Below are positions 11,901 through 46,781 of a stretch of 64,000 bases of DNA, in pieces. The stretch comes from a virus (lineage: Duplodnaviria; Caudoviricetes): the IMG/VR virus record IMGVR_UViG_3300021255_000152, positions 32,001 through 96,000 of that record, one strand, 5' to 3'. Below the pieces are notes generated by a model. The model did no database searches. It was not told the DNA's origin and saw only the letters and a list, made by a program, of their open reading frames with translations. The translations under genes were made by a program, and so were the position numbers. Position 1 is the stretch's first letter; each line of letters begins with the position of its first letter.

Positions 11901-14900
11901 TTGAAGAATATCTTCATATTGCAGATTCTGAAGAAGGAAAGACAATTTACGTCGCTGGAGATGAAATTCCAGATGTTATTCCTATTAATTTCCCAACAAA
12001 TTTAACTCGTTGGCAAATTGAATTAGAAGATGATAACAAGCTTTATCTTTATATCTATGCTGGATTAAATGATGAGGATCATCCTGCTGATAAATTAGTA
12101 GAACAAGGTCATGATAAAATTCCTGTTGAAAATATCTTATTTAAGAGAGAATCTTATTTACAAGAACTTAATACTAGATTAGCAGCTTATGTAGAAAATC
12201 CTGGAACAATTACCAGAGCAAATCTTGATGCTTACTTAGAATTATTAAACAATAATAATGAAAATAAGTATTTTGATCAATATCAGGCTTATTTATATCT
12301 CTGTGTTACTACTCCTGAAGAAAAAGACGAAGATGGTAATATCGTAACTCAAGAAGTTTCTGACTATCTTCCTTTCTGGACAATTATCACAGAAGGATAT
12401 GCGTTTAAGTTAGAGAATGGCAAAAAAGTTCCTAAGATGGTTATCTCTACCATTGGAAAAGAATCTTCTTCTTCTAGCATTCACTTTGATGTACAAGAAG
12501 CTAAAGAAAAAGGTCTCAATGTTCAGTTAAAAGAATTTGAAGCAAATAAATATTATTATCATCCAAACAATGACGGTAATAAATGAGCTGCTGAAATTAG
12601 AGCAAACCTTTTAACAGAATCTGGTCTTTGAAGAAATACATTAAATGGCGGATATAATGGTTATTATACTATTGAGTATGAAACACTTCCACCAGAATCT
12701 CAAGTAGATGATTTTGAAGAAGTAAATGATAATAATCATTTTAGATTCTTTACTTTGGATAGAGAACAAGCATATCGTTACCAAGATCTTGAAGGTAACT
12801 GAAGAGAAGAAATTCTTAGCAGAACATACCCAAGAGATACTAGAGATATTAATTATTACGATATTAAATTCTTGAGAGTTCCTTCTGATAAGATTGTATA
12901 TCAAAGTGGAATCTATTATGAAAAGAATGGCAATGGTGAGTTTGTTCTTACTGAAGATACAACTCCAGATGCATCTAAGACTTATTATCAGATAGAACAA
13001 AGATATGTTGAATCAGATACCAGTGGTATTTATAAGACAGGTTCTATCTGGAATGAAGAAGTTGTTCCAGTTCCTGATACTGTAACCATCGGATTCAGAG
13101 AAGAGTCTTGGAGAGCAAAACCTATTGAACATTATGCAAATAATGAGAATACTTTCAATGGATTGATTCTCCGACAGAACAATATGATGCGCGATGGTGA
13201 TGAATTAACTCGCGATCGCAGCACCGTTCAAGGAACAATTAATACTCTCAATGATATAATCGCTAAATTCTACACATTAACTCCTCGTGAATTTGTAACA
13301 GTAGATGAATATGGTCGTGTCCATAGCGCAAGCTGGGATTCAATGCAGCCAGATACTATTACAAACCTTGGATTACCTTCAGATGTTAGAACTGTTGCGA
13401 ATACAGATAAGCGTTGGATTAATTTAACATTAGATGATGATAAAGATAATCCACATTTCACAATTAAACATCAGTATAATCCAGTAGAACCTGTGAATAC
13501 ATATGCGAATAAGAATGAAAATACTACTGTTACTGGTAACGTTGGATTAAATCATTCCGCAGATGATACGTTAAAACTCTATACTCCTTTAATTGATGCT
13601 ACTGGACACGTTGTTGGACAGAATACAGAAACTGTAACTCTACCTTTCAATTATAAGGTTGTTACTATTGGTGCGCAAAGTGAAACTGTTTATGATTCTA
13701 CTAAGAATAATTTAACAGCTGGCTCTACAATAGACAAGGGTTATAGTGGAACTGGTAGTTTAATTGCAGAAAATACTAAAGATACATTTACTGTAAATAC
13801 TGGTAATAAATGGATTAGATTAATTCCAAATTCAGGAACAAAGTCTTATCAGATTAGCCATGAAGTTCATAATATAAATGTTTCCGATAACACTTCTACA
13901 AATTTAAATGCGGGAAGTGGTACAAATGTTATTAATATTCCAGATTGGGATTTTGACAATGCTGGACATATTATTGAAAAGCATAATCATGAATATACTT
14001 TACCATATGGTTATAAGTTTGTTCAAGATGAGGGTAATAGCAGCATTCAAGCTGGTAATACTCAAGATAAGTTGATTGTTGTGGGTGATAGTTATCTTAC
14101 AACTTCTGTAAATGATCATACATTAACAATAAGTCATGATAAGGTTAATCCAACAACAGCAACAACGCAGTTGAAGAGCAATGTAGAAACTCCTACTTTT
14201 GGATCAACATTTGTAATTGATGATTATAGCTTTGATAATCAGGGCCATCGTATTGTAACAAGTTCTCATACAGTACAATTCCCTAAAGGACAGCTCGCTA
14301 ATGGCACACATGTTGCAACAAGTGCAAATATCGTTACATCATTAGCCTTTGATGCAACTTCTGGAACTATTACAAAGACAGATGCTAATGTTGGCACATT
14401 ACCTTTAACAGGATATGCACAAGTAGAAAGTATTTCTGCAATGCCAACGGCAACAGATTCTATTAATACTGCTCTTGCTAAAGTAACATATATCTTAAAC
14501 AATAGTACAACTACTGTTGATAGTAGAATTTCTACTGCAATTACTGGATTATATGCAGCTGAATCTTCTGATGATTTTATTGCAAAAATTAAAGAAACAA
14601 ATGGTGTAATTTCTGCTACTACTGGTACTTTCGGAACATCTGGAACTATTGCAACAGATGCAGGCTCCAATAGAGAAGTTGTAACTTCTGTTACTATTAA
14701 TCATAGTGGTGTCATTAGTGGTACTAAATTAACGTTAGGAACTGCTGCATTGTCTGCAACAACAGATTTTGATGCAGCTGGTGCCGCAAATACAGTTAAG
14801 ACTGATTTAATTGGTACTGCTTCAGACACACAAGCCTCTGATACAATTACAGGTGCTAAAAAATATACAGATAATGCTGTAGCCACAATGGAGAGTAAAG

Positions 14901-33225: not shown

Positions 33226-33260
33226 GGGCAAGTTAAATTAACTTGCCCTTTTTCTTTTTT
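33226..33260 (+). terminator. Rho-independent terminator-like hairpin overlapping a GGGCAA motif
   Basis: GGGCAAGTTAA-A-TTAACTTGCCC plus T-runs. Confidence 0.6.
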
Positions 33261-33290
33261 ATATTTATTGATATATGAAGGAGGTTACTT

Positions 33291-33923
33291 ATGATACAAT
33301 ATAATAATGATAAAGTCGTAGATGCGGATTTAGACGCACTTAAATTATTAATGCTAGATACTATTTATCCAGTAGGATCTATCTATATGAGTGTCAATAA
33401 TGTTTCTCCTTCTACTTTATTTGGTGGAACATGGGAAGCTATTCAAGATAGATTTCTTTTGGCGGCGGGTGAGAGTTATAGTGGCGGAACGACTGGCGGT
33501 AGTGCAAAGCATACCCCCAGCGGTACCTTAAGTGGTGGTGCAGTTGGAAATCATACTCTAACTGTGGCTGAAACACCTGCTCATACACATACTAGAGGTA
33601 CCATGAATATTACTGGTGCATTTCGTGTTGATTTTGGTGGATCAGGATGATGTGCTGTTCGTAGTAGAAGTGGTGCATTTGCTGAGACTAATTCAGATAC
33701 TTCTGCTTGGATGAAGCAGGTTTCGTCAAGTGCAGTTGCTCCCCCTTCTGATGGTAAACAAACAGCAACATTTGATGCATCTCGTTCATGAACAGGTGAA
33801 ACTTCATCTGTTGGTAGTGGTGGAGCACATGATCACCCATTCACGCAACCTACTTTTAAAGGCACAAGCCAAAATACACTTCCACCATATTTAACTGTTT
33901 ATATGTGAAAGAGAGTTGATTAA
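33291..33923 (+). CDS. Baseplate wedge gp10 C-terminal / tail-collar-like protein, 210 aa under code 4
   Basis: YPVGSIYMS..P..LFGGTWE, HxH motifs, FDASRS-W(TGA)-TGETS and terminal LPPYLTVYM-W(TGA)-KRV. Confidence 0.85.
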
Positions 33924-33924
33924 T

Positions 33925-35061
33925 ATGGCTATTCAAATTAAAAATGATAATGTATTAATTGGCCATATTAATGATTTACAAAGTTCAATAAATAGTTTGG
34001 ATAGTAGAGTAACTACTGTCGAGAATAAATTCGCGCAATACCTGCCTTTAACGGGTGGGGGGCTTACAGGTAATCTTTCTGTTGGAGGAGTAATAACTGG
34101 AAAACTAGATGGGGCAGCTAGATATTTAACAAGTCCTGATACTAGAAGTGTTGTTATAAACCCATCAGATATTATTGCTTCTGAAAATGGGGTAAGATTT
34201 GATTTTAAATCTTCATCAACCATTGGATTATCTTCTAGTCCTGCTTATAGTGGAGTTATGACTTATAGACCTTATAGTAAAAACAGTGACTGATCAGGTG
34301 GCCCAGCTCATCAAATAGCTTTTAATGCAAATGGTTTATATTGAAGAAAAAGTTCTGGAGATACAACATGAGCTGATTGATATACTATTTTAGACAGTAA
34401 TAATTATACTTCTTATTATCCCACAGGAGTCAAAGACTATAATAATGGAAATACCATTACTTTTGGTTATTCTACTTCTGGAATGTCTTCAACATCTTGA
34501 TTAGGTTCTTGAGATGGTTATAAGTTAAGAGCAATAGCACCTAATGTATTAACAGTTAAATCAGCTTATACTTTAACTATTTCTCACGGTAATGAAATAA
34601 GATTTAATAACAATAGTAGTGCTAGTTCGCTTTGATTTAATTATTTAAGAGAAGATGGTAATACTTGTAACGTGACTTCATTTTACTGAGGAAATGGTAA
34701 TAAAGGAGCTAGTGCAACAATGGTTGCAGGATCTTTTTCTACTTCGAGTTCTAAAAAAATAAAAGAAAATATTTCGGACATGTCAGAAGAAGAAGCTTCT
34801 AAAATATTAAACATAGGAATAAAATCTTTTGATTATAAAGAGGGATTTGGAGAAAAAAATCAATTTGGATGTATTGCAGAAGATATATACAATGAAATTC
34901 CTTCTGTTGTACATATTCCAGATGAATATAATGAAGATACTCCTTTAGAAGAAAACAATATTGGTTTTCCTTCTATTGATTATTCTAAATTTGTTCCATA
35001 TATTATTAAAATGATTCAAATTCAACAAAAAGAAATAAATGAATTAAAAGGAGATCGATAA
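33925..35061 (+). CDS. Tail fibre/receptor-binding protein with pyocin-knob-like region and C-terminal peptidase S74 chaperone, 378 aa under code 4
   Basis: YLPLTGG.LTG; LY-W-RK...T-W-AD-W-YTILDSNNY (all TGA); SSKKIKENI..FDYK..GCIAED..IDYSK..coiled coil. Confidence 0.8.
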
Positions 35062-35319: not shown

Positions 35320-35697
35320 AGAAAGAGTAGAATTTTAACCTAATTATCTCTTAATGAAGAGAATACCTTTCAATTTTTTATTTAACCTACGATGAAAACC
35401 CGCTTTTCTCACAGCTCCATATAAAATCTCGCCATTTTTTAAAACATATTTACATCCTTCTAACTCTGAAATTCAGAGAATGTTGATATATAATGCTTTA
35501 TTAACAAGAATAAAATTTTCTGATAGCTTACTAGCGACTTCCTTGGTCGTTTGGTAAGTACAGAAAATTTCATTTGCTGTATGAATGTAGGTTTTCCGGT
35601 CGTAATGGTCGAGGTAGATTATTTCATCTTCCTCTAAGATAATTTTTCTGTTAATTCTAACTTTCATAAAGAGTGAATTAAAAATTCTACTCTTTCT
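35320..35697. repeat. 17-bp perfect inverted repeat pair flanking the LytTR gene
   Basis: AGAAAGAGTAGAATTTT at 35320-35336 and AAAATTCTACTCTTTCT at 35681-35697. Confidence 0.8.
35344..35667 (-). CDS. Stand-alone LytTR-type DNA-binding protein, 107 aa under code 4
   Basis: EIIYLDHYDRKTYIHT..F..VNKALYINIL-W-I..L....VLKNGE.L LytTR pattern, complete only with TGA read-through; ends TAA 35344. Confidence 0.75.
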
Positions 35698-38043: not shown

Positions 38044-38075
38044 GGGAACGCTTATTGCGTTCCCTTATTTTTTTT
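38044..38075 (+). terminator. Rho-independent terminator
   Basis: GGGAACGC-5nt-GCGTTCCC plus T-run; overlaps a TGTTATAAT extended -10 upstream of ycaO. Confidence 0.7.
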
Positions 38076-38104: not shown

Positions 38105-39865
38105 ATGAATAAAGAAATTTTAGACTATAAATATAAAGAAAGAACTCCAACGGAAACAGTACAAATTATAAAGGATTTTTTTGAGAAAAAAGGATTTACT
38201 CTTGACTTAGAACATGAAGGTGCTTCAGAGGCTGGAACATATAGTTGCCATATTAAATTATTTTTTGAGGGTGACTTTATTATGTTTTCTAATGGAAAGG
38301 GTGCTACTCGAGATTTAGCTTTAGCTAGCGGATATGCAGAAATGTATGAACGTTTTTGTAATGGTATGAAATCTTTTACTCAGAAAAATTTCTATCATAA
38401 AGTTAAAGAAGTTTGTGAAAAAACTTTTGGATATAAAATTCATCCTCAAGAAAAACAATTAACTTATGAACAAGCCGTATTAGAAGAAAACAATGTTAAT
38501 AATTATTATTCTGTAGTAAGTAATTACAATGAGAAAATTAAAGAAAGAATTGCCAGAACATTAACAAATGATGAATTTATTGGATTACCTTATAAAAATG
38601 TTTTAACTAATGATATAAAATATATTGACCCACAATTAGTTTTAAGATTTGACAATAGTACAGGTATGTGCGCAGGTAATACTTATGAAGAAGCTTTTAA
38701 TGAGGGATTTTCTGAAATATTAGAACGATATTGCTATATTGATTTATTTGGTTCAGAAGGATTAGAAAAATATCATGTTGTAGATTTAACTAAAATAGAA
38801 AATGAGATATTGCGCGAAAAAGCTGAAAATATTAAAAAAGCGGGATATGATTTTTATTTAGTAGATATGTCTTATGAATATGGATTACCTGTTGTTATGG
38901 GACTTTTGGTCAATACTAGAGATCATTTTTGCAGACTTAATTTTGGTAGTTTTCCTATTTTTGAAGTTGCAGCAATGCGCACAATAACAGAAGCATATCA
39001 AAATGTAGATTCTTTTAAAAAATATGAAGATTTAATTCAAGTTCCAGCAGAGAAAAATTTTAACCTTAGTGCATTTTTAAAAGAAAATGGTACTGGATTA
39101 TCTGCTGCTGCTTTTGCGCCAGCTCATTTTTTCACTAGAATTGAACAAATTGATTCTTATAATAAAAATTTTTATATGGACGTTAATTCTACTCCTAAAG
39201 AAATTTATGAATATTATATGCATTTTATTGCAGAGAATGATTTAAATGTTTGGGTGATTGATAATAGTTTAATGAAAGAAGTATTTTCTTTGCATATATA
39301 TGTAGATAATCTCTCTTATAGTTATCCAATGGATTATTTAGTTGAATATAACGATATTAATTATAGATATCTATTTGATCAAATGGAAATTATGAAGAAA
39401 TATGAATATATGATGTATGATATCTCTCCAAATTTTCAAGATATAGATCATTTTGATGTAGAAATTTTATTAGCAAAAGATATAGGCACAAGTTTAGTTA
39501 CATTATTAATGTATTCTCAAACAATCTATCCTTATTTTATTGATTTTGATCCATTTATAAGAATTGTTTTAGATATGGATGAATTAAATTCTGGTACAAT
39601 AGTACGAAAATATTGTTGGACTTTCCTTTTTCCTTATTGTAAAAGATATTATACAATTAGAAGATATGTAGATTCTAATTATTCTTATGAAGAAATGTTA
39701 CCAATTATGGAAAAATTAGGCATTAAGAATTTTTCTAAAGAGGAATATGAACATGCCGCAGATTTGAATTATTTATTGCGAAAAATTTTAATTGAACCAT
39801 GTTGGAATTATTATCATTCAGATAGATATGAAAAATTTTGCCTAGCATTAATAGAAAAAATATAA
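38105..39865 (+). CDS. ycaO: YcaO-family ATP-dependent peptide backbone-modifying enzyme, 586 aa
   Basis: AAGGAG RBS before ATG 38105. SNGKGAT..LALASGYAEMYER and STGMCAGNTYEEA..EG.SEILER ATP/Mg-binding motifs. No in-frame TGA. Confidence 0.9.
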   Translation: MNKEILDYKYKERTPTETVQIIKDFFEKKGFTLDLEHEGASEAGTYSCHIKLFFEGDFIMFSNGKGATRDLALASGYAEMYERFCNGMKSFTQKNFYHKVKEVCEKTFGYKIHPQEKQLTYEQAVLEENNVNNYYSVVSNYNEKIKERIARTLTNDEFIGLPYKNVLTNDIKYIDPQLVLRFDNSTGMCAGNTYEEAFNEGFSEILERYCYIDLFGSEGLEKYHVVDLTKIENEILREKAENIKKAGYDFYLVDMSYEYGLPVVMGLLVNTRDHFCRLNFGSFPIFEVAAMRTITEAYQNVDSFKKYEDLIQVPAEKNFNLSAFLKENGTGLSAAAFAPAHFFTRIEQIDSYNKNFYMDVNSTPKEIYEYYMHFIAENDLNVWVIDNSLMKEVFSLHIYVDNLSYSYPMDYLVEYNDINYRYLFDQMEIMKKYEYMMYDISPNFQDIDHFDVEILLAKDIGTSLVTLLMYSQTIYPYFIDFDPFIRIVLDMDELNSGTIVRKYCWTFLFPYCKRYYTIRRYVDSNYSYEEMLPIMEKLGIKNFSKEEYEHAADLNYLLRKILIEPCWNYYHSDRYEKFCLALIEKI

Positions 39866-39867
39866 AA

Positions 39868-39929
39868 AAAAGATGGAGAATTAGTCTTTAACCAAATCCC
39901 CTAGGATTGTGACTAATTCTCCATCTTTT
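39868..39929. terminator. Long inverted repeat, probable terminator between convergent ycaO and the radical SAM operon
   Basis: AAAAGATGGAGAATTAGTC (39868-39886) and GACTAATTCTCCATCTTTT (39911-39929), 19 bp perfect. Confidence 0.65.
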
Positions 39930-40129
39930 ATCATGTGTTTTATCCATATCTCATAAGAGAGCGGACGCATTTCATCAAGACGACGTGAATACTCAATTAA
40001 TTCTTCATCAGTAAATTCTTCTAAATACATTAAAATAAGACTTCGTATTTTTACTTCATCTTTTGGAATGCCAAAAAAGTAATTAATTGTTTCTTTTACA
40101 AACTCTTTTTGTTGATGACTAAGGCTCAT
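39881..40129 (-). CDS. Small acidic helical protein, 82 aa (paralogue of 40628-40837)
   Basis: GAGGTG RBS; F..E...YF..I......R...L.Y.....TD...I..S pattern. Confidence 0.65.
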   Translation of the reverse strand: MSLSHQQKEFVKETINYFFGIPKDEVKIRSLILMYLEEFTDEELIEYSRRLDEMRPLSYEIWIKHMIKDGELVTILGDLVKD

Positions 40130-40628
40130 TTTTATTCACCTCTTTTATAAATTTTAATAAAAAATCTTTTCCATTTAAAGCTAAAATTGATAAAAATACA
40201 CAATAGGCACTAGTTCCAGTTATTCCTATATCCTGTTCATTTACATTTGTAGCTCAATGAAGAGTATAATTTGCAGAAAATATATTCGATATACATCATG
40301 GATATTGATACTCTTCATCTACTGCTGCAATAACAATATTATTATTTGCTAATTTTATTCATTTTTTTATATCTACTTTTTCAAAAGCAATTGGAACGCA
40401 AATAATAGAATTTTTTATATTAAAATCAATATTAGCTTCATCCATAAAAGTAATTTTTATATTATTTTTTAAATAAGGATAAAATTCATTTTTAAACAAA
40501 TTTAAAATTATCTCTTTATGAAAATTATCTTTATCTATTAAAATAATTTGTTGATTAAAATTATCTAAGGGGATGAGTTTTTGGAATAATTTATCTGTTG
40601 CTAAAAAAGATTCTGATGTTGTTAGCAT
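40119..40628 (-). CDS. Hypothetical protein, possibly a minimal S8/subtilase-like peptidase, 169 aa under code 4
   Basis: Track ORF 40359-40628 extends through 3 TGA to TAG 40119. Ordered IILID, H, IVIAA...YP and GTSA motifs. Confidence 0.45.
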
Positions 40629-40837
40629 TAGCCGTTAATTTCAATATCACTATTTGTACTTTCAGAAGTCTCTGGTTTAACATTAGAGCCTAAAATATTA
40701 CTAATAGCAATAATTTGATCATCAGTTAAAAGACCTCTATCAATGTATGTTAATGTCATTTGACGAGCATTAGTTTCATCAATTTGCGCAAAATAACACA
40801 AAGATTCAAAAATAAACTGTAAAGCAACTTGACTCAT
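40628..40837 (-). CDS. Small helical protein, 69 aa (paralogue of 39881-40129)
   Basis: GGAGG RBS; TAA/ATG coupling with the next gene. Confidence 0.65.
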   Translation of the reverse strand: MSQVALQFIFESLCYFAQIDETNARQMTLTYIDRGLLTDDQIIAISNILGSNVKPETSESTNSDIEING

Positions 40838-40838
40838 A

Positions 40839-41804
40839 TTATTTTCCCTCCATTATTTGATCGCAGTAAGAACAATGTCAGCATTCTCCTTTGCAATTTC
40901 TTCTATATAAAAGTCATTTTTGAGGATACTTTATTTGTTCCTCTGGATTTAGATAAATACAAGAACCAGAAATACAATCTAATAAATATGTTGGATTAGT
41001 TCTTGTTGCATAATATTTTAAAATTTTAGATATTTTTTCTGTAGGTAAAGTTCTATCTTCTAGCTTGAATCCATTAAAATATTGATTATAATAATCTAAT
41101 TCTTCTGGTAAAATAAATGGTCCTTTTAATCAATTATGAGTAAATTGATCGGTTAAAAGATTAAAAGTTTCTCTTATTTCAAAAGTATCATTTTCTTTTC
41201 AAGAAGAATTATTTGAACAATATGCGTTTTGATGCCAATAATATAATGGACAATTTATCCTACAAATACTATTTACAATTGTTGAATATTTTATTGAAGT
41301 TTGAGATGTTAAAATTTTTAACATATCCTCATTTCTATTTAAGTCTTGTGGCAAACATATTTCTTGAATATACCCAAGCTTTTCTATTTCTTTTATTTTA
41401 TTTAAATCTTTAATACCAGATAAAATACTTAATCGAATTTTTAAATTAGGAAAATTTATGTATATTCAATGTGCTAAAATTGGATCAGCTACGACTACGC
41501 CAAAAAGTCCAAAAGAACATAGTTTTTTTATATTTTGGCGTAAAATTGTAAGATTATAATTAGAATAATCTATCTTTGAAGAATTTAGAACGACCATTGG
41601 TTTAATATCATATTGATTCATTGTTTGACATAGATAAGATATTATTTCATTATATTTTTCAATATTTGGATAATCGTTTTGTCTAGCACTAGGAAATATA
41701 TCTGGATGTAGTGGAAAGTATATTTCAGAAATATATTTAGAGTATTTTTTATATAAATCTAAAACTTTTAAATCTAAATTAAAGGGGACTTGTAATTTTT
41801 TCAT
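40839..41804 (-). CDS. Peptidase U32-family (Fe-S, probable O2-independent hydroxylase-type) protein, 321 aa under code 4
   Basis: VVLNS, GVVVADP, IRLS, DLNRN, IVNSICRINCP..WH, LKGPFILPEEL, FKLEDR, terminal CKGECWHCSYC. 5 TGA read through. Confidence 0.75.
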
Positions 41805-42892
41805 TCTTTAAACTCCATTTTATTACTGGCATGAATAGAAAAAATTATTTTATTATTTATTAGAGTTTCTTCTCTAAGATGCTTTTTTAAAACTTTTAAG
41901 CATCCATCATAGAAAGTTTTATTATAAGCACATTGAGCCAAATCTTTATGATATTCTTTTCCTATAAATCCAGTAAAAGGACACTTTCCTCTACATGTTA
42001 TGACATACTTACAATGCTTACAATCTTCTAATTGTTGCTGACGGGTGTTTCTTAAAATATTGCGAAATTCCGATTGTTCAATTTTTTGTTTAAGATTTTC
42101 TTTATCCGTAAATACATTTGCCATACATGTTTCATCGCTTCAAGGCTTTCCGCATGAATAAACGCCGCCATCTGGATGAATTCCATATCAATGTCCAACG
42201 CAATTTTTTCCTTCACAAAAGAACAATTCTTTTCCTTCAATATAAGAAAGTATTTCATCAAAAGGTCTGTCTAAATCATCTGTTTCTGTAATGCATATAT
42301 AATCAAATAATTCAACCATTCTTTTGGCTAATTCAATATGGTCTTCAATCGTTAATCCAATTCCAAAAGCTGTATTAAAAATTAGATTAAACTCATTATC
42401 TCGCGCAAATTGATAAGATTCAATAATTCTCTTACTATTCTCTGGAGTCATTGTAAAAATAGCATTTACAACAACTCCTTTTTCTTTTCCTCGTTGCATT
42501 AATTCAAAGAAATTTCTTGAACCTCTAGATATATTATTATCAATACCATCCCAAGAACTTCCTATGTTTATTTGCAATTTTTTAAAATAATCTAATCAAG
42601 CATCATTTATTAATGTTCCATTTGATTGAAAAGCTCAATTAATAGGTTTATCGGAAAAATGTTGTGTTACATTTTTAAAATAATCAAGTCCTAAAATTGA
42701 AGGTTCCCCTCCATGTCAAATAATTTCTCAAGACTCATTTGGATCAATAGCAATTATATTTTCAAGTGCTTCAATAGCTTGTTCTTGGGTCATTTCTAAA
42801 GGATGTTCTGCATCTCGATTATTTTTTTCATAACAATAAGTGCATTTTAAATTACATCTATATGTTGGTTTAAATATTACTGTATTTGACAT
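41774..42892 (-). CDS. Radical SAM/SPASM maturase (rSAM-C), about 372 aa under code 4 (ends 41801 if the last TGA is a stop)
   Basis: AGGAGG RBS; KPTYRCNLKCTYC, II-W-HGGEP, QSNGTL, SSWDG; SPASM cysteines C..C / I.PDG.VY.C / CKHC.....C.G.C / C. Confidence 0.9.
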
Positions 42893-44210
42893 AATCTTTT
42901 TGTAGTTCCTCCTTTAAGTATGCTGGCATATATAATTGCTGAATTAAATATTGTTTTAAAGTAGGATTTAATTTAACAAATTCTTTTGGTGTTAAATTTC
43001 CTAATTTATCATAAATATATGGGACAATAGCTTTTCAAAATTTACATTGTGCAGAATATGGCTTTAATCCTTTTGATTCTTTTAAAGAACAATTCAAACA
43101 GCCTTGACCGCAAACAGGAAGATAATCACAGTTTAAACATTGATTTTGTATTTGAGTTTGTTTTAGTTGTTGTAATTTTAAGCTTTTATCTCCATTAAAG
43201 AAATCTTTAATTGAATTAAGCTCATCTATATTGCAAACATGCATTTCTTCAATACTTGTGTCATCACATCTATATAATTCACCATCTGCGTTAATACAAA
43301 TACGATTTGAATATAAGCAATTATCTAAATTGCATATCTCAGCAGAACGATTTAATGCTCGACGTATATAAGCGAGAGCAGATCGTTCTGGAACTCTTGG
43401 ATTATTATCATATATAAAAAATTCTAAATATTTTTTATACTCTTGGATAAATTCATCTATATCTAAGAATTTTTCTAATGGATTATTAGTAGTACCAAAT
43501 ACTGCATTAAAACTAAAAGGAACTCCATTATCAGAAGCCTTTTTAGAATCTGCAATTAAATTTTTAACATTTTGTTTAGTAATTACAGATATTATAAAAT
43601 AAAAATTAGATAATTTTTCTTGAGATAATTCATATCCTCTACATTGCTGCCCACTTCAGTCATAACTGGTTCCAATAGGAACATTATATTTATCTAAAAG
43701 ATATTTTCATTCATCATCTAAAAGAGTTCCATTACTTTGTGCATTAAAAATTAATTTTATATCTTCTTTAATAGCATATTTATACATTTCTAAACAAACA
43801 TCATCAAATCATTGTTTATCTACTGTTAAGAACTCTCCTCCATGTCAAGTTCATTCGATTTTTGAATAACCTTCTTCATTTAATAATCTAAGTAATCTTA
43901 AAATGCGCTCTTTTGATAAAACCATTCTTGGTTTTTGCTGATTTTTTTTATCAAAACAATAAATACAGTTTTGATTACAAAAATTTGTCACTTTACAAAT
44001 AACTTCACAATTATTATAACAATGATGATCGTTTCAATCTCCTTGGAATGTTTTTTCTGAATCCTTTTTTCCCAAAAGAACTTGTAGATATTCGTTTTTT
44101 AATAAAGAGTAATAATTTTGAATTCCTTCTTCTGTAGTTTCATCAATAACTTGATTAAAGTCAATGTTTGGAAGATAATTATCAAAATCTATATAATCAC
44201 TATATTTCAT
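42870..44210 (-). CDS. Radical SAM/SPASM maturase (rSAM-B) with about 70-aa N-terminal extension, 446 aa under code 4
   Basis: GGAGG RBS; KVTNFCNQNCIYC, E-W-T-W-HGGE, QSNGTLL; SPASM C....C / INADGELYRC / CLNC.....CGQGC / C. 7 TGA. Confidence 0.9.
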
Positions 44211-44598
44211 TGAAACCTCCTATATAATGAATAAAATCATTATCTTGTTTATTTTCTTGTGGAGATTTTAAAATATAAATAGTTAATTTATTTTCAATAC
44301 AATATTGAATTATCACATTGATATATTGTAAGGGATAATCTTTAGAAAGGTCAAAGATAACACCACCATTTATAATATCTATATTATTAATTAAATTTTC
44401 AACAGAAGTTTTTGTTATTTTTGTAAAAAGATAATATAAATCAATTCTAGAATCTCAATTATTAGCAATAAATCTTTTTTTAAAAAATTCTGGAATTATT
44501 TTATCTTCAAAAGATAAAGCTATCTTGCATTCTTCTGTTTTGTCGAAAACATGACGAATATTTTTATAAATATCTTTATCATATTGAAAAATTTTCAT
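44200..44598 (-). CDS. Hypothetical protein in the radical SAM operon, 132 aa under code 4
   Basis: ATG 44598 two bases after the upstream stop; one TGA; TAG 44200 overlaps the rSAM-B start region. Confidence 0.6.
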
Positions 44599-44600
44599 AA

Positions 44601-45782
44601 TTAATCTCCTGTTCCTAAATATGTAAGTAAATCTTGAATATCAATAATTTTTTGATTTTCAATAAATTCATCTACTCCTCCACCAGTAGAATAATTTGGG
44701 TTATTTCCTGTTCTTAAATTATAAGCTGTTGATGTTCCTTGGCGCATTTGAAGAATATCTTCCCATGTAATAATGGTAAAATTAGAAACTACTGGACTAT
44801 TTGTAAAAGTAACAGTAGTTTGACCCATTGCAGTGAGAACTTTATTTACTTCTCCTTGTACCTGATCTTCATTTGGTTTAGTATAATAGTCAGTATTTCA
44901 AGTAGGAGCTGTATAGTGATAAATTCTAATTGGAGAAGAGACTGCGGCATAAGTGGTTTCGTATGCGGTTGTATCTTGTCTAACATTACTATAACCAGTA
45001 CCATTATTTGATGCAGTAACTGCATTGGTAGCATGATTTTCAATATGATGATAAGTTCAGCCATTTCCTGAAGGAATAGCACTCCAACTACCATTATCAT
45101 AAACAGTAACACCAATTTTATACCAACCAGCGGTTAATGAAGTAGCTGTTCAAGTATAAGAGGTTGAAGTCTGTTCTGATAATAAGGTCCAATTTCCATA
45201 AGTACCGTTTTGGGTAGCACAATATTGATAATATATACGAAATTTTGTGGCTGTGCTAGTATTATCATCAGAATATATTAATGATGTTAATATAATTTTT
45301 ATAGATTTGCTGTTATAATATCTAGAATTTGCAAATGTTGAACCAGATACTTGAGGTGCTTTATTGGTAGTGTTTGTTGGAGTTCTTCCAGTTTCTACTG
45401 TTGTATTAACTGCTGCAGTGTTGGTGTGATTATTATATCCAGTATTTCTATGGTTACTATATCCACTATTTGTATGGTTATTATATCCGCTTTTAGTATA
45501 TCCACCATTGTTTGTGTGGTCATCATAACCTCTGTCGTTATGATTTGCGTATCATCCATCATTCATAGTTCATCCAGAACTTCTTCTATCGGTATGATCG
45601 TCACTACCGCTATTTCTATGGTTGCTATAATTTCTATGGTTATTATATCCAGTATTTCTATGGTTATTAGCACCAGACTGAGAATAATTATTATAACCTG
45701 ATTGACGATATGCAGAATTTGTATGTCTATAATTTATTCTATATCCATTGGTATGAACCGCTTTTTGATGAGATTTAATCAT
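44601..45782 (-). CDS. Candidate substrate/precursor: N-terminal (S/T)GY-x-N-H-x-N repeats, Ig/FN3-like domain, C-terminal helical domain; 393 aa under code 4
   Basis: GAAAGGAG RBS, ATG 45782, in frame with track ORF 44601-44828. 5 TGA. 11 H-x-(N/D) and 7 Y-x-(N/D)-H motifs in the first about 122 aa. Confidence 0.8.
45417..45756 (-). repeat. Degenerate 24-nt coding tandem repeats (8-aa unit)
   Basis: AACCATAGAAATACTGGATATAATAA occurs twice, with further degenerate copies encoding xGYNNHRN / xGYSNHRN / xGYDDHTN. Confidence 0.8.
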
Positions 45783-46734
45783 TTTCTTTCTCCTTTCTAT
45801 ATCCAAGACAGGCGCAATAAAGTCCCGTTCGAGCATGTCTTGGACAAGATAAGCATTCTTTTTGAGGCGGAGTTTTTCTTAGAGAATCTTCTTCCGCATG
45901 AAGTAAATCTAATATTTCATCAAAAGTTTCAAACTCTGATAAAGCATGTTTGAACTTGTTGCATCCAAAACAACCAATAATATCTAATTCTGGCGTAACA
46001 TCTAAGGCAGAACCATCACAAGCAAAACTTCCAAAAAATGATGGGTCTATCTTCATAGCAAATGCAACGAAATCATCGTCATATGCGCAAATAGGCGGAT
46101 TATTACAATCGCAAGAAAATGTTACATTATATTTGGTTGCCCAAGTCAGCATTTCTTTTAATATAGGTTGAAATTCATGAAAATACTGTTTAAAATTAAA
46201 ATCTTTAGATAATTTCATATTTGGTACAGTAATTGACCATCTAATATCAGAAATATTATATTTTGCAATAATGTCTTCCCAAAAGCTCATATCTTGATGC
46301 GGATCAAAAATATTAATACTAATACGACTTACAGCATTTGGAATGCATAAAGAAAGATAGTCTAAATTACGTTCTATCGTAGGAAGAAATTGCGGATTAT
46401 TGTTAATATTTGGTAAAAATTCAATAAAAATTTCATCACTATATTCCACAATTTTTTGAGCAAATTCAAAAGAAAATGAAAAATTAGAAAAAACTAACAC
46501 GGAAGAAAAACAATCATAAGAAATTATAATATCTAATAAATCAAAAAATTGCGGATGTAATGATGGCTCTCCTCCGATAAGTCTAACATTTTTTTCATTA
46601 TTTTGCTTTAAAAAATCTAAATATATTTTAAAGTTATCTAAATTTATATTTTTTACTGTATTTGTTTTCATTTCTGTTTGCGCGAAGCAATAAGGACAAT
46701 GAAAATTGCAATAAGTATTTATCATTAAGTTCAT
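45775..46734 (-). CDS. Radical SAM enzyme (rSAM-A) with C-terminal twitch/SPASM-like cysteines, 319 aa
   Basis: CNFHCPYC, LIGGEPSLHP, C...LDVTPEL.I.GCF, CLSC....C.C. No in-frame TGA. Confidence 0.9.
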   Translation of the reverse strand: MNLMINTYCNFHCPYCFAQTEMKTNTVKNINLDNFKIYLDFLKQNNEKNVRLIGGEPSLHPQFFDLLDIIISYDCFSSVLVFSNFSFSFEFAQKIVEYSDEIFIEFLPNINNNPQFLPTIERNLDYLSLCIPNAVSRISINIFDPHQDMSFWEDIIAKYNISDIRWSITVPNMKLSKDFNFKQYFHEFQPILKEMLTWATKYNVTFSCDCNNPPICAYDDDFVAFAMKIDPSFFGSFACDGSALDVTPELDIIGCFGCNKFKHALSEFETFDEILDLLHAEEDSLRKTPPQKECLSCPRHARTGLYCACLGYRKEKEND

Positions 46735-46752
46735 AGTCTATACCTCAATATA

Positions 46753-46781
46753 ATTCTATCAAAAAAAAACGCTTCTGTCAA
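46753..46781 (-). promoter_or_regulatory. Sigma-A/70 consensus promoter driving the radical SAM operon
   Basis: TTGACA-17 nt-TAGAAT with TG extension, 18 nt upstream of the rSAM-A ATG. Confidence 0.8.

Follow-up and report, generated by a model that had tools for sequence, protein, structure and literature searches.

Introduction

Radical S-adenosylmethionine (rSAM) cyclophane synthases join an aromatic residue to the C-beta atom two positions on, and the aromatic-X-X motifs proven as their substrates include HTK, HAA and HAS for histidine as well as YSK for tyrosine (PMC11499958; PMC12912966). In the HXS system (HxsA/B/C/D; Nat Commun 2026), paired rSAM enzymes and a small protein mature a whole His-X-Ser-repeat protein, which is also processed at its N-terminus; the system is bacterial (99.7% Pseudomonadota), comprises four genes and provides a periplasmic effector with a peptidoglycan-binding domain (PMC13128918). 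In gut phages, codon reassignment marks the late genes, as described by Borges et al. in a paper that addresses the code change and leaves radical SAM or YcaO genes unmentioned (bioRxiv 10.1101/2021.08.26.457843). Here, we describe a locus at positions 38105-46781 of a 64,000-nucleotide (nt) stretch of phage DNA (the window), which represents bases 32001-96000 of the 138-kb IMG/VR virus record IMGVR_UViG_3300021255_000152 with an estimated completeness of 79%. With TGA read as tryptophan, this locus encodes three rSAM enzymes (rSAM-A and the SPASM-type rSAM-B and rSAM-C), a U32-family protein, a miniature subtilisin-fold protein (mini-subtilase), three further small proteins and a repeat protein of 393 amino acids (aa), next to the gene for a YcaO protein. 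We read it, with a probability of roughly 0.6, as a late-expressed phage operon for the enzymatic maturation of a phage-encoded protein, and most likely, as judged by analogy, the operon would cross-link the phage's own His/Tyr/Asn-rich repeat protein.

As in HXS, rSAM enzymes together with small proteins would, by inference, mature a protein in which tandem histidine repeats, His-X-(Ser/Asn) in HXS, lie beside a folded domain, and proteolytic processing, for which the putative mini-subtilase is the candidate in the phage, would accompany the modification. The phage locus differs from HXS in being phage-borne and in adding a third rSAM enzyme, the U32 protein, YcaO and the mini-subtilase, while its repeat protein differs from HxsA in having H-x-N/D repeats with tyrosine, a fibronectin type III (FN3) domain and no signal peptide. 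The HXS family models give no match for HxsA and HxsD, and 57-62 bits against a cut-off of 370 for HxsB. Triceptide synthases (enzymes that form three-residue cyclophanes, 3-CyFE: HtkB, HaaB, ChlB, MicB, XyeB, GrrM/OscB), which form a cross-link from an aromatic carbon to C-beta with a change of -2 Da per motif, resemble the locus in that an anSME-like rSAM/SPASM enzyme is encoded beside repeated aromatic-X-X motifs including His and Tyr. Such repeated motifs are present in the repeat protein (11 H-x-N/D plus Y-x-N, shuffle p<0.0005), whereas its 393 aa are not a short peptide, two SPASM paralogues occur with other enzyme classes, the cross-link is a predicted one, and the scores against the family models (GrrM/OscB, XyeB, FxsB, YhhB, AmcB) amount to 39-90 bits against cut-offs of 310-450.

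An earlier note on this DNA, which had been made from the sequence alone, had called the locus RiPP-like, that is, resembling loci for peptides that are ribosomally synthesized and modified post-translationally (RiPPs). One part of this description stands, as a precursor-type gene lies beside the enzyme genes and is co-inherited with them in all six phage loci compared. The other does not, as the candidate precursor is a 393-aa protein with a folded domain and not a short leader/core peptide, and no RiPP recognition element (RRE) was detected in the cassette; nor, as the note had already remarked of exporters, was any exporter or membrane protein detected among the cassette proteins. The length of 393 aa and the folded FN3 domain place the protein closer to an rSAM-matured protein such as HxsA than to a classical RiPP peptide. 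To judge from the protein families, the locus would work like triceptide synthases and HXS and fits the sequence definition of neither. TGA recoding in gut phages being already known, the cassette is a variant within rSAM-dependent peptide and protein maturation; a search of the literature on phage rSAM/YcaO cassettes and on U32 proteins with SPASM enzymes gave no description of such a system.

Results

A packed operon under TGA=Trp

With the standard code (table 11), the stretch from 39.9 to 46.7 kb consists of fragments of at most 129 aa, the sole exception being the 319-aa open reading frame (ORF) of rSAM-A, and next to the stretch lies a YcaO frame of 607 aa; two small ORFs are left intact in addition to the YcaO and the one rSAM gene that the earlier note had expected standard pipelines to find. 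Reading TGA as Trp resolves positions 39881-46734 of the minus strand into nine contiguous ORFs, a single gap-free operon with junctions of 1-31 nt overlaps or 1-2 nt gaps, in which 28 in-frame TGA codons are spread over six of the nine ORFs. TGA does not serve as the terminal stop of any ORF within the window. When aligned to orthologues encoded on five other contigs, TGA codons face TGG-Trp 125 times, Tyr 37 times, Phe 31 times and Gly 13 times, and since the TGA columns align mainly with TGG-Trp, TGA is read as Trp. The same counts (Gly 13 versus Trp 125) rule out TGA=Gly (code 25), and pseudogene decay is ruled out as well, as the frames open under one rule across several diverged phages. 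The genes run in the order rSAM-A, repeat protein, 132-aa protein, rSAM-B, rSAM-C, U32 protein, small helical protein, mini-subtilase and second small helical protein and converge on YcaO, which lies on the plus strand. Packing, gene order and convergence are all as the earlier note had read them, and so is the consensus promoter that it had placed ahead of the operon: the site directly upstream of rSAM-A, in the only intergenic gap there, is the best match within 37.9-47 kb, in a region where the total of promoter-like sites is not above that of shuffled sequences.

The 28 in-frame TGA codons of the operon require a suppressor tRNA for their reading, and a tRNA with anticodon UCA is encoded in the window. 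The record is organized in two blocks, a plus-strand late block (structural, lysis) rich in TGA and a minus-strand early block nearly free of it; the cassette is on the minus strand, yet inside the late block and TGA-rich, a pattern that matches the marking of late genes by recoding in gut phages (bioRxiv 10.1101/2021.08.26.457843). Late genes with TGA=Trp, the lack of TGA stops, the tRNA(UCA) and early genes in standard code make this a TGA-to-Trp recoded phage, which resembles the phages of Borges et al. in TGA=Trp in the late structural and lysis modules, the suppressor tRNA, standard-code early genes and gut Firmicutes or Bacteroidetes hosts. A 'two-tier gating', in which TGA-free rSAM-A and YcaO are made early, was considered and rejected: it fits YcaO, free of TGA in 4/4 phages, and fails for rSAM-A, the orthologues of which carry 2-3 TGA codons in L004, L006 and L007.

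The cassette in related phages

Besides the window, five phage loci on other contigs (L003, L004, L006, L007 and L008) were compared; the six span 23-67% identity and three genomic neighbourhoods. All share the order rSAM-A, repeat protein, small protein and two SPASM-type proteins (three in L006), and in 6/6 the repeat gene either overlaps the rSAM-A stop with its start or begins at most 2 nt away from it. Conserved synteny, which the earlier note had suggested looking for, is thereby borne out, and the observation that it had named as speaking against its idea, namely enzymes occurring without the repeat protein, was not made in these loci, each of which has both, with the repeat gene directly after rSAM-A. 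The U32 gene comes next in 5/6 loci, the L006 contig ending before that point. L003 and L004 (YcaO 49% and 54% identical) are laid out as in the window. In L008 (YcaO 37% identical), YcaO is the first and co-directional gene of the operon. Of the six cassettes, four thus have YcaO next to them, and its arrangement is either convergent or, as in L008, leading. The cassette of L007 (repeat protein 34% identical) adjoins a CHAP lysin gene, and that of L006 (repeat protein ~23-27% identical) follows genes for primase, Pol III alpha and helicase.

Looser relatives include a TAG=Gln phage (L005:10001-15769) with YcaO, a 291-aa protein with a Cys/Asn/His-rich C-terminal half and two rSAM enzymes, and another TGA-recoded contig (L009:77-6228) with YcaO, a protein of 186 aa that is N/Y/C-rich in its C-terminal half, two rSAM enzymes and rSAM-A. 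These layouts link YcaO, rSAM-A and low-complexity N/H/Y/C-rich proteins across phage lineages. The low-complexity proteins of this type have a leader-like N-terminal domain, their rSAM enzymes measure ~460-480 aa, and an extra ~110-aa protein is encoded. Homologues of YcaO amount to 72 matches in metagenomic contigs, several of 120-180 kb, and those of the repeat protein to about 25, all in metagenomic contigs. A DNA search of GenBank phages with the 38-47 kb region gave no match, and a protein search with rSAM-C retrieved only distant anSME-like matches of at most 32% identity. Pattern scans of IMG/VR (repeat protein, rSAM-C and family alignment) gave no confirmed relative, and the repeat-protein alignment, when scanned against representative bacterial genomes, retrieved none; both relied on back-translated patterns with TGG as the only codon for Trp, which recoded relatives may escape.

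The repeat protein

The candidate substrate consists of a conserved N-terminus (M-x-x-x-Q-K-A-V-H-(S/T)-N-G), 8-residue G-Y-x-N-H-x-N repeats, an FN3 domain and a three-helix C-terminus. Within residues 1-121, 11/12 histidines fall into H-x-N/D motifs, against a mean of 3.2 in shuffled sequences (p<0.0005), and Y-x-N motifs are present as well. The AlphaFold2 (AF2) model predicts residues 1-140 to be disordered and residues 140-290 to form an FN3-like beta-sandwich (Z 9.7-8, ~96 aa aligned, root-mean-square deviation (rmsd) 2.5 A); the three C-terminal helices gave no structural match, a profile search of the PDB with the repeat-protein alignment gave no match, and a signal peptide was not detected. 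Among homologues, the number of repeats varies and the Tyr position is often taken by Cys, Ala or Ser. A predicted complex of rSAM-A with residues 1-70 of the repeat protein scored 0.01, which gives no verdict either way.

rSAM, U32 and YcaO enzymes

Domains were assigned with Pfam and NCBIfam profiles, the scores being given in bits against the family cut-offs. The identities proposed in the earlier note hold by these profiles, with PF04055 in three proteins, two of them anSME-like SPASM enzymes, PF02624 at 124 bits for YcaO and PF01136 at 23.1 bits for the U32 protein. The SPASM domain is confirmed in two of the rSAM enzymes; TIGR04085 gives 39.5 bits for rSAM-B, above the cut-off, and PF13186 stays just under its cut-off. 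rSAM-A combines a CxxxCxxC motif with eight invariant C-terminal cysteines, and its gene ends in a stop that is overlapped by the repeat-gene start. The N-terminus of rSAM-B is a fused module of ~55 aa, which in L003, L007 and L008 is a separate small ORF. The NCBIfam matches of rSAM-B and rSAM-C are mostly anSME and the aromatic cross-linkers DynA, AmcB, DarE, DarW, YhhB, GrrM/OscB and XyeB; for rSAM-C the top matches are anSME (117 bits), DynA (110 bits) and AmcB (90 bits), all under the family cut-offs, and the nearest PDB entries are anSME 4K37 (3e-15), CteB and the triceptide synthase ChlB.

The U32 protein exceeds the PF01136 cut-off marginally, matches phrog_5757 with an E value of 1.7e-10 and gave no match among PDB sequences. 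Its orthologues in L003, L004, L007 and L008 match PF01136, weakly in L003, and the family has six invariant cysteines, so that both the profile and the conserved cysteines of Peptidase U32 are present. Characterized U32 proteins hydroxylate RNA or ubiquinone (RlhA, TrhP, UbiU/V), and UbiU and UbiV act in pairs. L003 (9082-10008, plus strand) and L008 (16553-17587, minus strand) each encode one more U32-like paralogue, divergent and with 24% identity to the U32 protein of the cassette; these two copies share 51% identity, lie beside YcaO or at the operon end and are absent from the phage record of the window.

Among solved structures, that of E. coli YcaO (4Q84, E 9e-16) comes nearest to the phage YcaO, with MusD, TruD and LynD far behind. 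The phage protein shares with E. coli YcaO and with the azoline- and thioamide-forming YcaOs the ATP-grasp-like YcaO domain, and its 586 aa resemble the E. coli length. It is unlike the known YcaOs in scoring 97.5 bits against 700 for the S12-accessory equivalog NF040716, despite 4Q84 being the nearest structure, in the lack of a detected E1-like or TfuA partner, the E1-like domain having been looked for in neighbouring genes, and in its context of a phage rSAM cassette. The score for the azoline-forming (SagD-type) YcaOs of thiazole/oxazole-modified microcins (TIGR03604) is 53.8 bits against 219. The homologues are 576-594 aa long, and these lengths together with the terminator-like hairpin at 38044-38064 support 38105 as the start of YcaO, which is the start given in the earlier note.

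The mini-subtilase and other small proteins

The guess of a 'possible mini-subtilase' is supported at the fold level. The AF2 model of the L003 orthologue, with a predicted local distance difference test (pLDDT) of 80.6 and a predicted template modelling score (pTM) of 0.80, aligns in VIA-align to S8/S53 proteases with Z 14.2-10, the ~40 top matches being all subtilisin-like (best match 164 aa aligned, rmsd 2.7 A). Further orthologues occur in L004, L007 and L008. This modelling supports a subtilisin fold for the 169-aa protein, for which the role of a protease is putative. Among the fold matches are PatA, EpiP and NisP, leader peptidases of RiPPs, which the phage protein resembles in fold (Z 11.7-13.3), in the candidate residues Asp32, His37 and Ser140 and in being encoded in a modification cluster; it differs from them in length (~165 aa versus at least 265), in that Asp (I-D) and His (N-x-H) are five residues apart, and in the lack of an S8 profile match. 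Every full-length member retains these two residues and the Ser (G-x-S). Pfam gave no match to the protein, and a profile search of the PDB with the mini-subtilase alignment gave none.

The 82-aa protein has a sequence pattern in common with 64-71-aa proteins of L003, L007 and L008. For the 132-aa protein, no match was found in Pfam, NCBIfam or PHROG profiles; ORFs of 114-133 aa in L007 and L008 are equated with it by position and sequence pattern alone.

Bacterial relatives

Full-length relatives of rSAM-A in bacterial genomes are 23-31% identical. In the Dehalobacter group, five loci of four genomes contain a module that encodes, in this order, a SPASM rSAM enzyme, a U32 protein, a 258-aa secreted protein and rSAM-A, and its three enzymes are homologous to those of the phage (rSAMs E 1e-27 to 1e-32; U32 E 5e-10 at 25% identity). 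The 258-aa protein has Y/W-x-N repeats (Y-S-N runs, W-E-N-H-T), followed by a Thr/Ser-rich region that is Ig-like by eye. The module (L012-L016; Dehalobacter, Dichloromethanomonas, Peptococcaceae; for example L015:4796-10981) lies beside Flp/Tad pilus genes and occurs also with an A24 prepilin peptidase and a 275-aa lipoprotein; one genome has two copies. In one Prolixibacteraceae genome (L011), there is a 20-nt overlap between an rSAM-A-like gene and a YcaO gene inside a LanB/LanC/YcaO cluster. This large RiPP-type cluster of the metagenome-assembled genome (L011:6153-20213) comprises three YcaO, two LanC-like, a LanB, a NusG-like regulator and two rSAM-A-like genes. Other bacterial relatives are solitary or lie beside ABC transporter genes, and the occurrence of rSAM-A relatives alone or in other contexts indicates a family wider than this cassette.

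Flanking genes

The locus is placed between tail and lysis genes, as previously noted, with baseplate and tail-fibre genes (Gp10_C and S74-chaperone proteins) upstream and a GH25/CW_7 endolysin and a holin-like ORF downstream. The coordinates of the features are collected in Table 1. The endolysin is composed of an N-terminal peptidase-like part, GH25, an NAGPA-like region and CW_7 repeats, and the 142-aa ORF at 49382-49810, resembling a transmembrane protein, may be the holin. A GT8 glycosyltransferase ORF listed at 50525-51253 (plus strand) overlaps the suppressor tRNA gene, so that its real start is probably later; it lies near the gene for an Asn-rich protein with N-x-S/T. Between the tail-fibre genes and the cassette there is a lone 107-aa ORF (35344-35667, minus strand), and an L004 ORF of the same size and position bears a LytTR DNA-binding domain; the ORF of the window may be a local regulator. 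The window from 1 to 33216 (plus strand) contains late ORFs of 1667, 1125, 2006, 2614 and 1311 aa, most of which need many TGA read-throughs (up to 22).

Table 1. Features of the locus and its surroundings, with positions in the window.
Feature	Position	Strand	Basis
Tail-fibre proteins, Gp10_C and S74-chaperone	33243-35061		flank of the locus
Terminator-like hairpin after a 189-aa gene, upstream of the YcaO start	38044-38064	+	8-bp stem, 6 GC pairs, T run
586-aa YcaO of the E. coli type, free of in-frame TGA	38105-39865	+	PF02624, 123.8 bits vs cut-off 25.7
Small helical protein of 82 aa, paralogous to that of 69 aa	39881-40129	-	ORF; L004 orthologue, 73% identity
Miniature subtilisin-fold protein, 169 aa, putative processing protease	40119-40628	-	fold match of the L003 orthologue
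Small helical protein, 69 aa	40628-40837	-	ORF; L004 orthologue
U32-family protein, 321 aa, 5 TGA	40839-41804	-	PF01136, 23.1 bits vs cut-off 22.4 (marginal)
rSAM/SPASM-C, 372 aa, 7 TGA	41774-42892	-	PF04055, 57 bits
rSAM/SPASM-B, 446 aa, 7 TGA	42870-44210	-	PF04055; TIGR04085, 39.5 bits vs cut-off 27
132-aa protein of no known family	44200-44598	-	ORF; BLAST orthologues in L004 (38%) and, weakly, L003
Repeat protein, candidate substrate, 393 aa	44601-45782	-	start at 45782 as in 393-aa homologues, overlaps rSAM-A stop
rSAM-A, 319 aa, no TGA	45775-46734	-	PF04055, PF13353
Sigma-70-type promoter of the operon, TTGACA-17-TAGAAT with TG extension	46781-46753	-	11/12 matches
Endolysin, 825 aa, three TGA read-throughs needed	46891-49368	+	GH25, CW_7
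UGA-suppressor tRNA, anticodon UCA	50481-50552	+	ARAGORN

Discussion

On the grounds of synteny, translational coupling and the analogous bacterial module, we propose the repeat protein as the target of the enzymes. The 393-aa protein would be translated in step with rSAM-A and present its disordered N-terminal G-Y-x-N-H-x-N array as the substrate. rSAM-B and rSAM-C would take hydrogen from the Asn/Asp side chains of the H-x-N/D and Y-x-N triads, and Asn/Asp would then be joined to the His or Tyr two residues upstream, following the aromatic-X-X 'triceptide' logic. rSAM-A might add one further radical modification, the U32 Fe-S protein an O2-independent hydroxylation and the E. coli-type YcaO an activation of backbone amides with ATP, and the mini-subtilisin-fold protein would trim the product. 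From this would result an arm rich in His, Tyr and Asn, rigid and resistant to proteases, on an FN3 and helical domain. Late-type coding, the FN3 domain and the lack of any signal for export suggest that the product would exit the cell either with the virion or through lysis. More specifically, and tentatively, recoded gut phages might carry a multi-enzyme 'protein-hardening' set of three rSAM enzymes, U32, YcaO and mini-subtilase that builds a densely cross-linked virion appendage from a disordered array of His/Tyr/Asn (or Cys) repeats, with a homologous module modifying a secreted surface protein in Dehalobacter-group bacteria; we hold this to be possible and clearly less probable than maturation of a phage protein as such. 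If so, the class would be a previously unrecognized one, and a phage structural protein would for the first time be seen to undergo RiPP-like maturation.

Several points weigh against maturation of the repeat protein in this form. Every enzyme scores far under the curated cut-offs of the named families, for which reason the chemistry of the cassette is an extrapolation. To our knowledge, the substrates of U32 enzymes are RNA and quinones and include no proteins, and we know of no proven peptide chemistry for E. coli YcaO. The repeat motif is non-uniform, with Cys in many homologues for the Tyr of the window and only 2 H-x-N/D motifs in L008, and N-H-S/T doubles as an N-x-S/T glycosylation sequon in the neighbourhood of a GT8 gene. 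In hhalign, the phage repeat family has no detectable homology to the Dehalobacter repeat protein, so the two are analogous only. The cassette of L006 lies beside replication genes and not tail genes, and a YcaO gene was not called within 10 kb in L007, nor in the 10 kb upstream in L006. In L008, the rSAM-C orthologue (13704-14825, plus strand) lacks CxxxCxxC and a Pfam match and keeps the C-terminal SPASM cysteines; judged by its sequence, it may be a degenerate, non-catalytic paralogue. For a location of the product on the virion, there is no supporting observation.

The next best explanation, which we consider unlikely, is a phage RiPP or bacteriocin, in which the modified repeat is cut from FN3 by the mini-subtilase and released at lysis against competing bacteria. 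The resemblance of the subtilisin-fold protein to the leader peptidases PatA, EpiP and NisP would suit such a product, as would the leader-plus-Cys-rich-core appearance of the L005- and L009-type precursors and the rSAM-A relatives that belong to a LanB/LanC/YcaO cluster or adjoin ABC transporter genes; in addition, the unsuppressed substrate gene of the window ends after 70 aa, comprising the conserved N-terminus and the first repeats, which gives a product of RiPP size. The repeat genes of L003 and L006 are free of TGA and do not share this stop, neither an immunity gene nor an exporter was found in the cassette, and the FN3 and helical domains are conserved family-wide, which is unexpected for a discarded follower.

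Quite improbable is a phage-borne counterpart of HXS, in which an rSAM-matured His-repeat protein blocks the entry of competitor-phage DNA (superinfection exclusion). Paired rSAM enzymes, small accessory proteins, His-X-Ser-like repeats with a folded anchoring domain and, putatively, N-terminal processing are shared features (PMC13128918), and the L008 homologue has H-S-R-S repeats. Against it stand not only the HxsA, HxsB and HxsD model results given above but also the absence of HxsC from the best 25 matches listed for each protein, the PADLOC output of only generic viperin-type rSAM matches, and a repeat protein without a detected signal peptide or peptidoglycan-binding domain; furthermore, the heavy TGA load suggests late expression, whereas exclusion should act early.

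Least of all do we expect that the enzymes target host RNA or ribosomal proteins (U32 hydroxylating rRNA or tRNA, YcaO aiding an S12 rSAM enzyme) next to an unrelated structural repeat protein, since, for all that characterized U32 members act on RNA or ubiquinone and the nearest YcaO is the E. coli S12 methylthiotransferase accessory factor, no methylthiotransferase-type rSAM was found in the cassette, rSAM-A and the repeat gene are strictly adjacent in six loci, and the bacterial module also pairs the enzymes with a repeat protein.

If maturation of the phage's own repeat protein holds true, phages would carry a complete anaerobic post-translational chemistry for their own proteins, beyond single auxiliary enzymes. 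The cassette, which standard gene callers miss because of the code change, would then provide a new radical SAM set, a new context for YcaO, a U32 enzyme directed at protein and, within this analysis, the smallest protein of subtilisin fold. It would link recoded gut phages with cyclophane-forming rSAM enzymes and with rSAM-matured His-repeat proteins such as those of HXS, and the Dehalobacter-group module together with the related cassettes of L005 (TAG-recoded) and L009 (another TGA-recoded contig) suggests a spread beyond one phage lineage.

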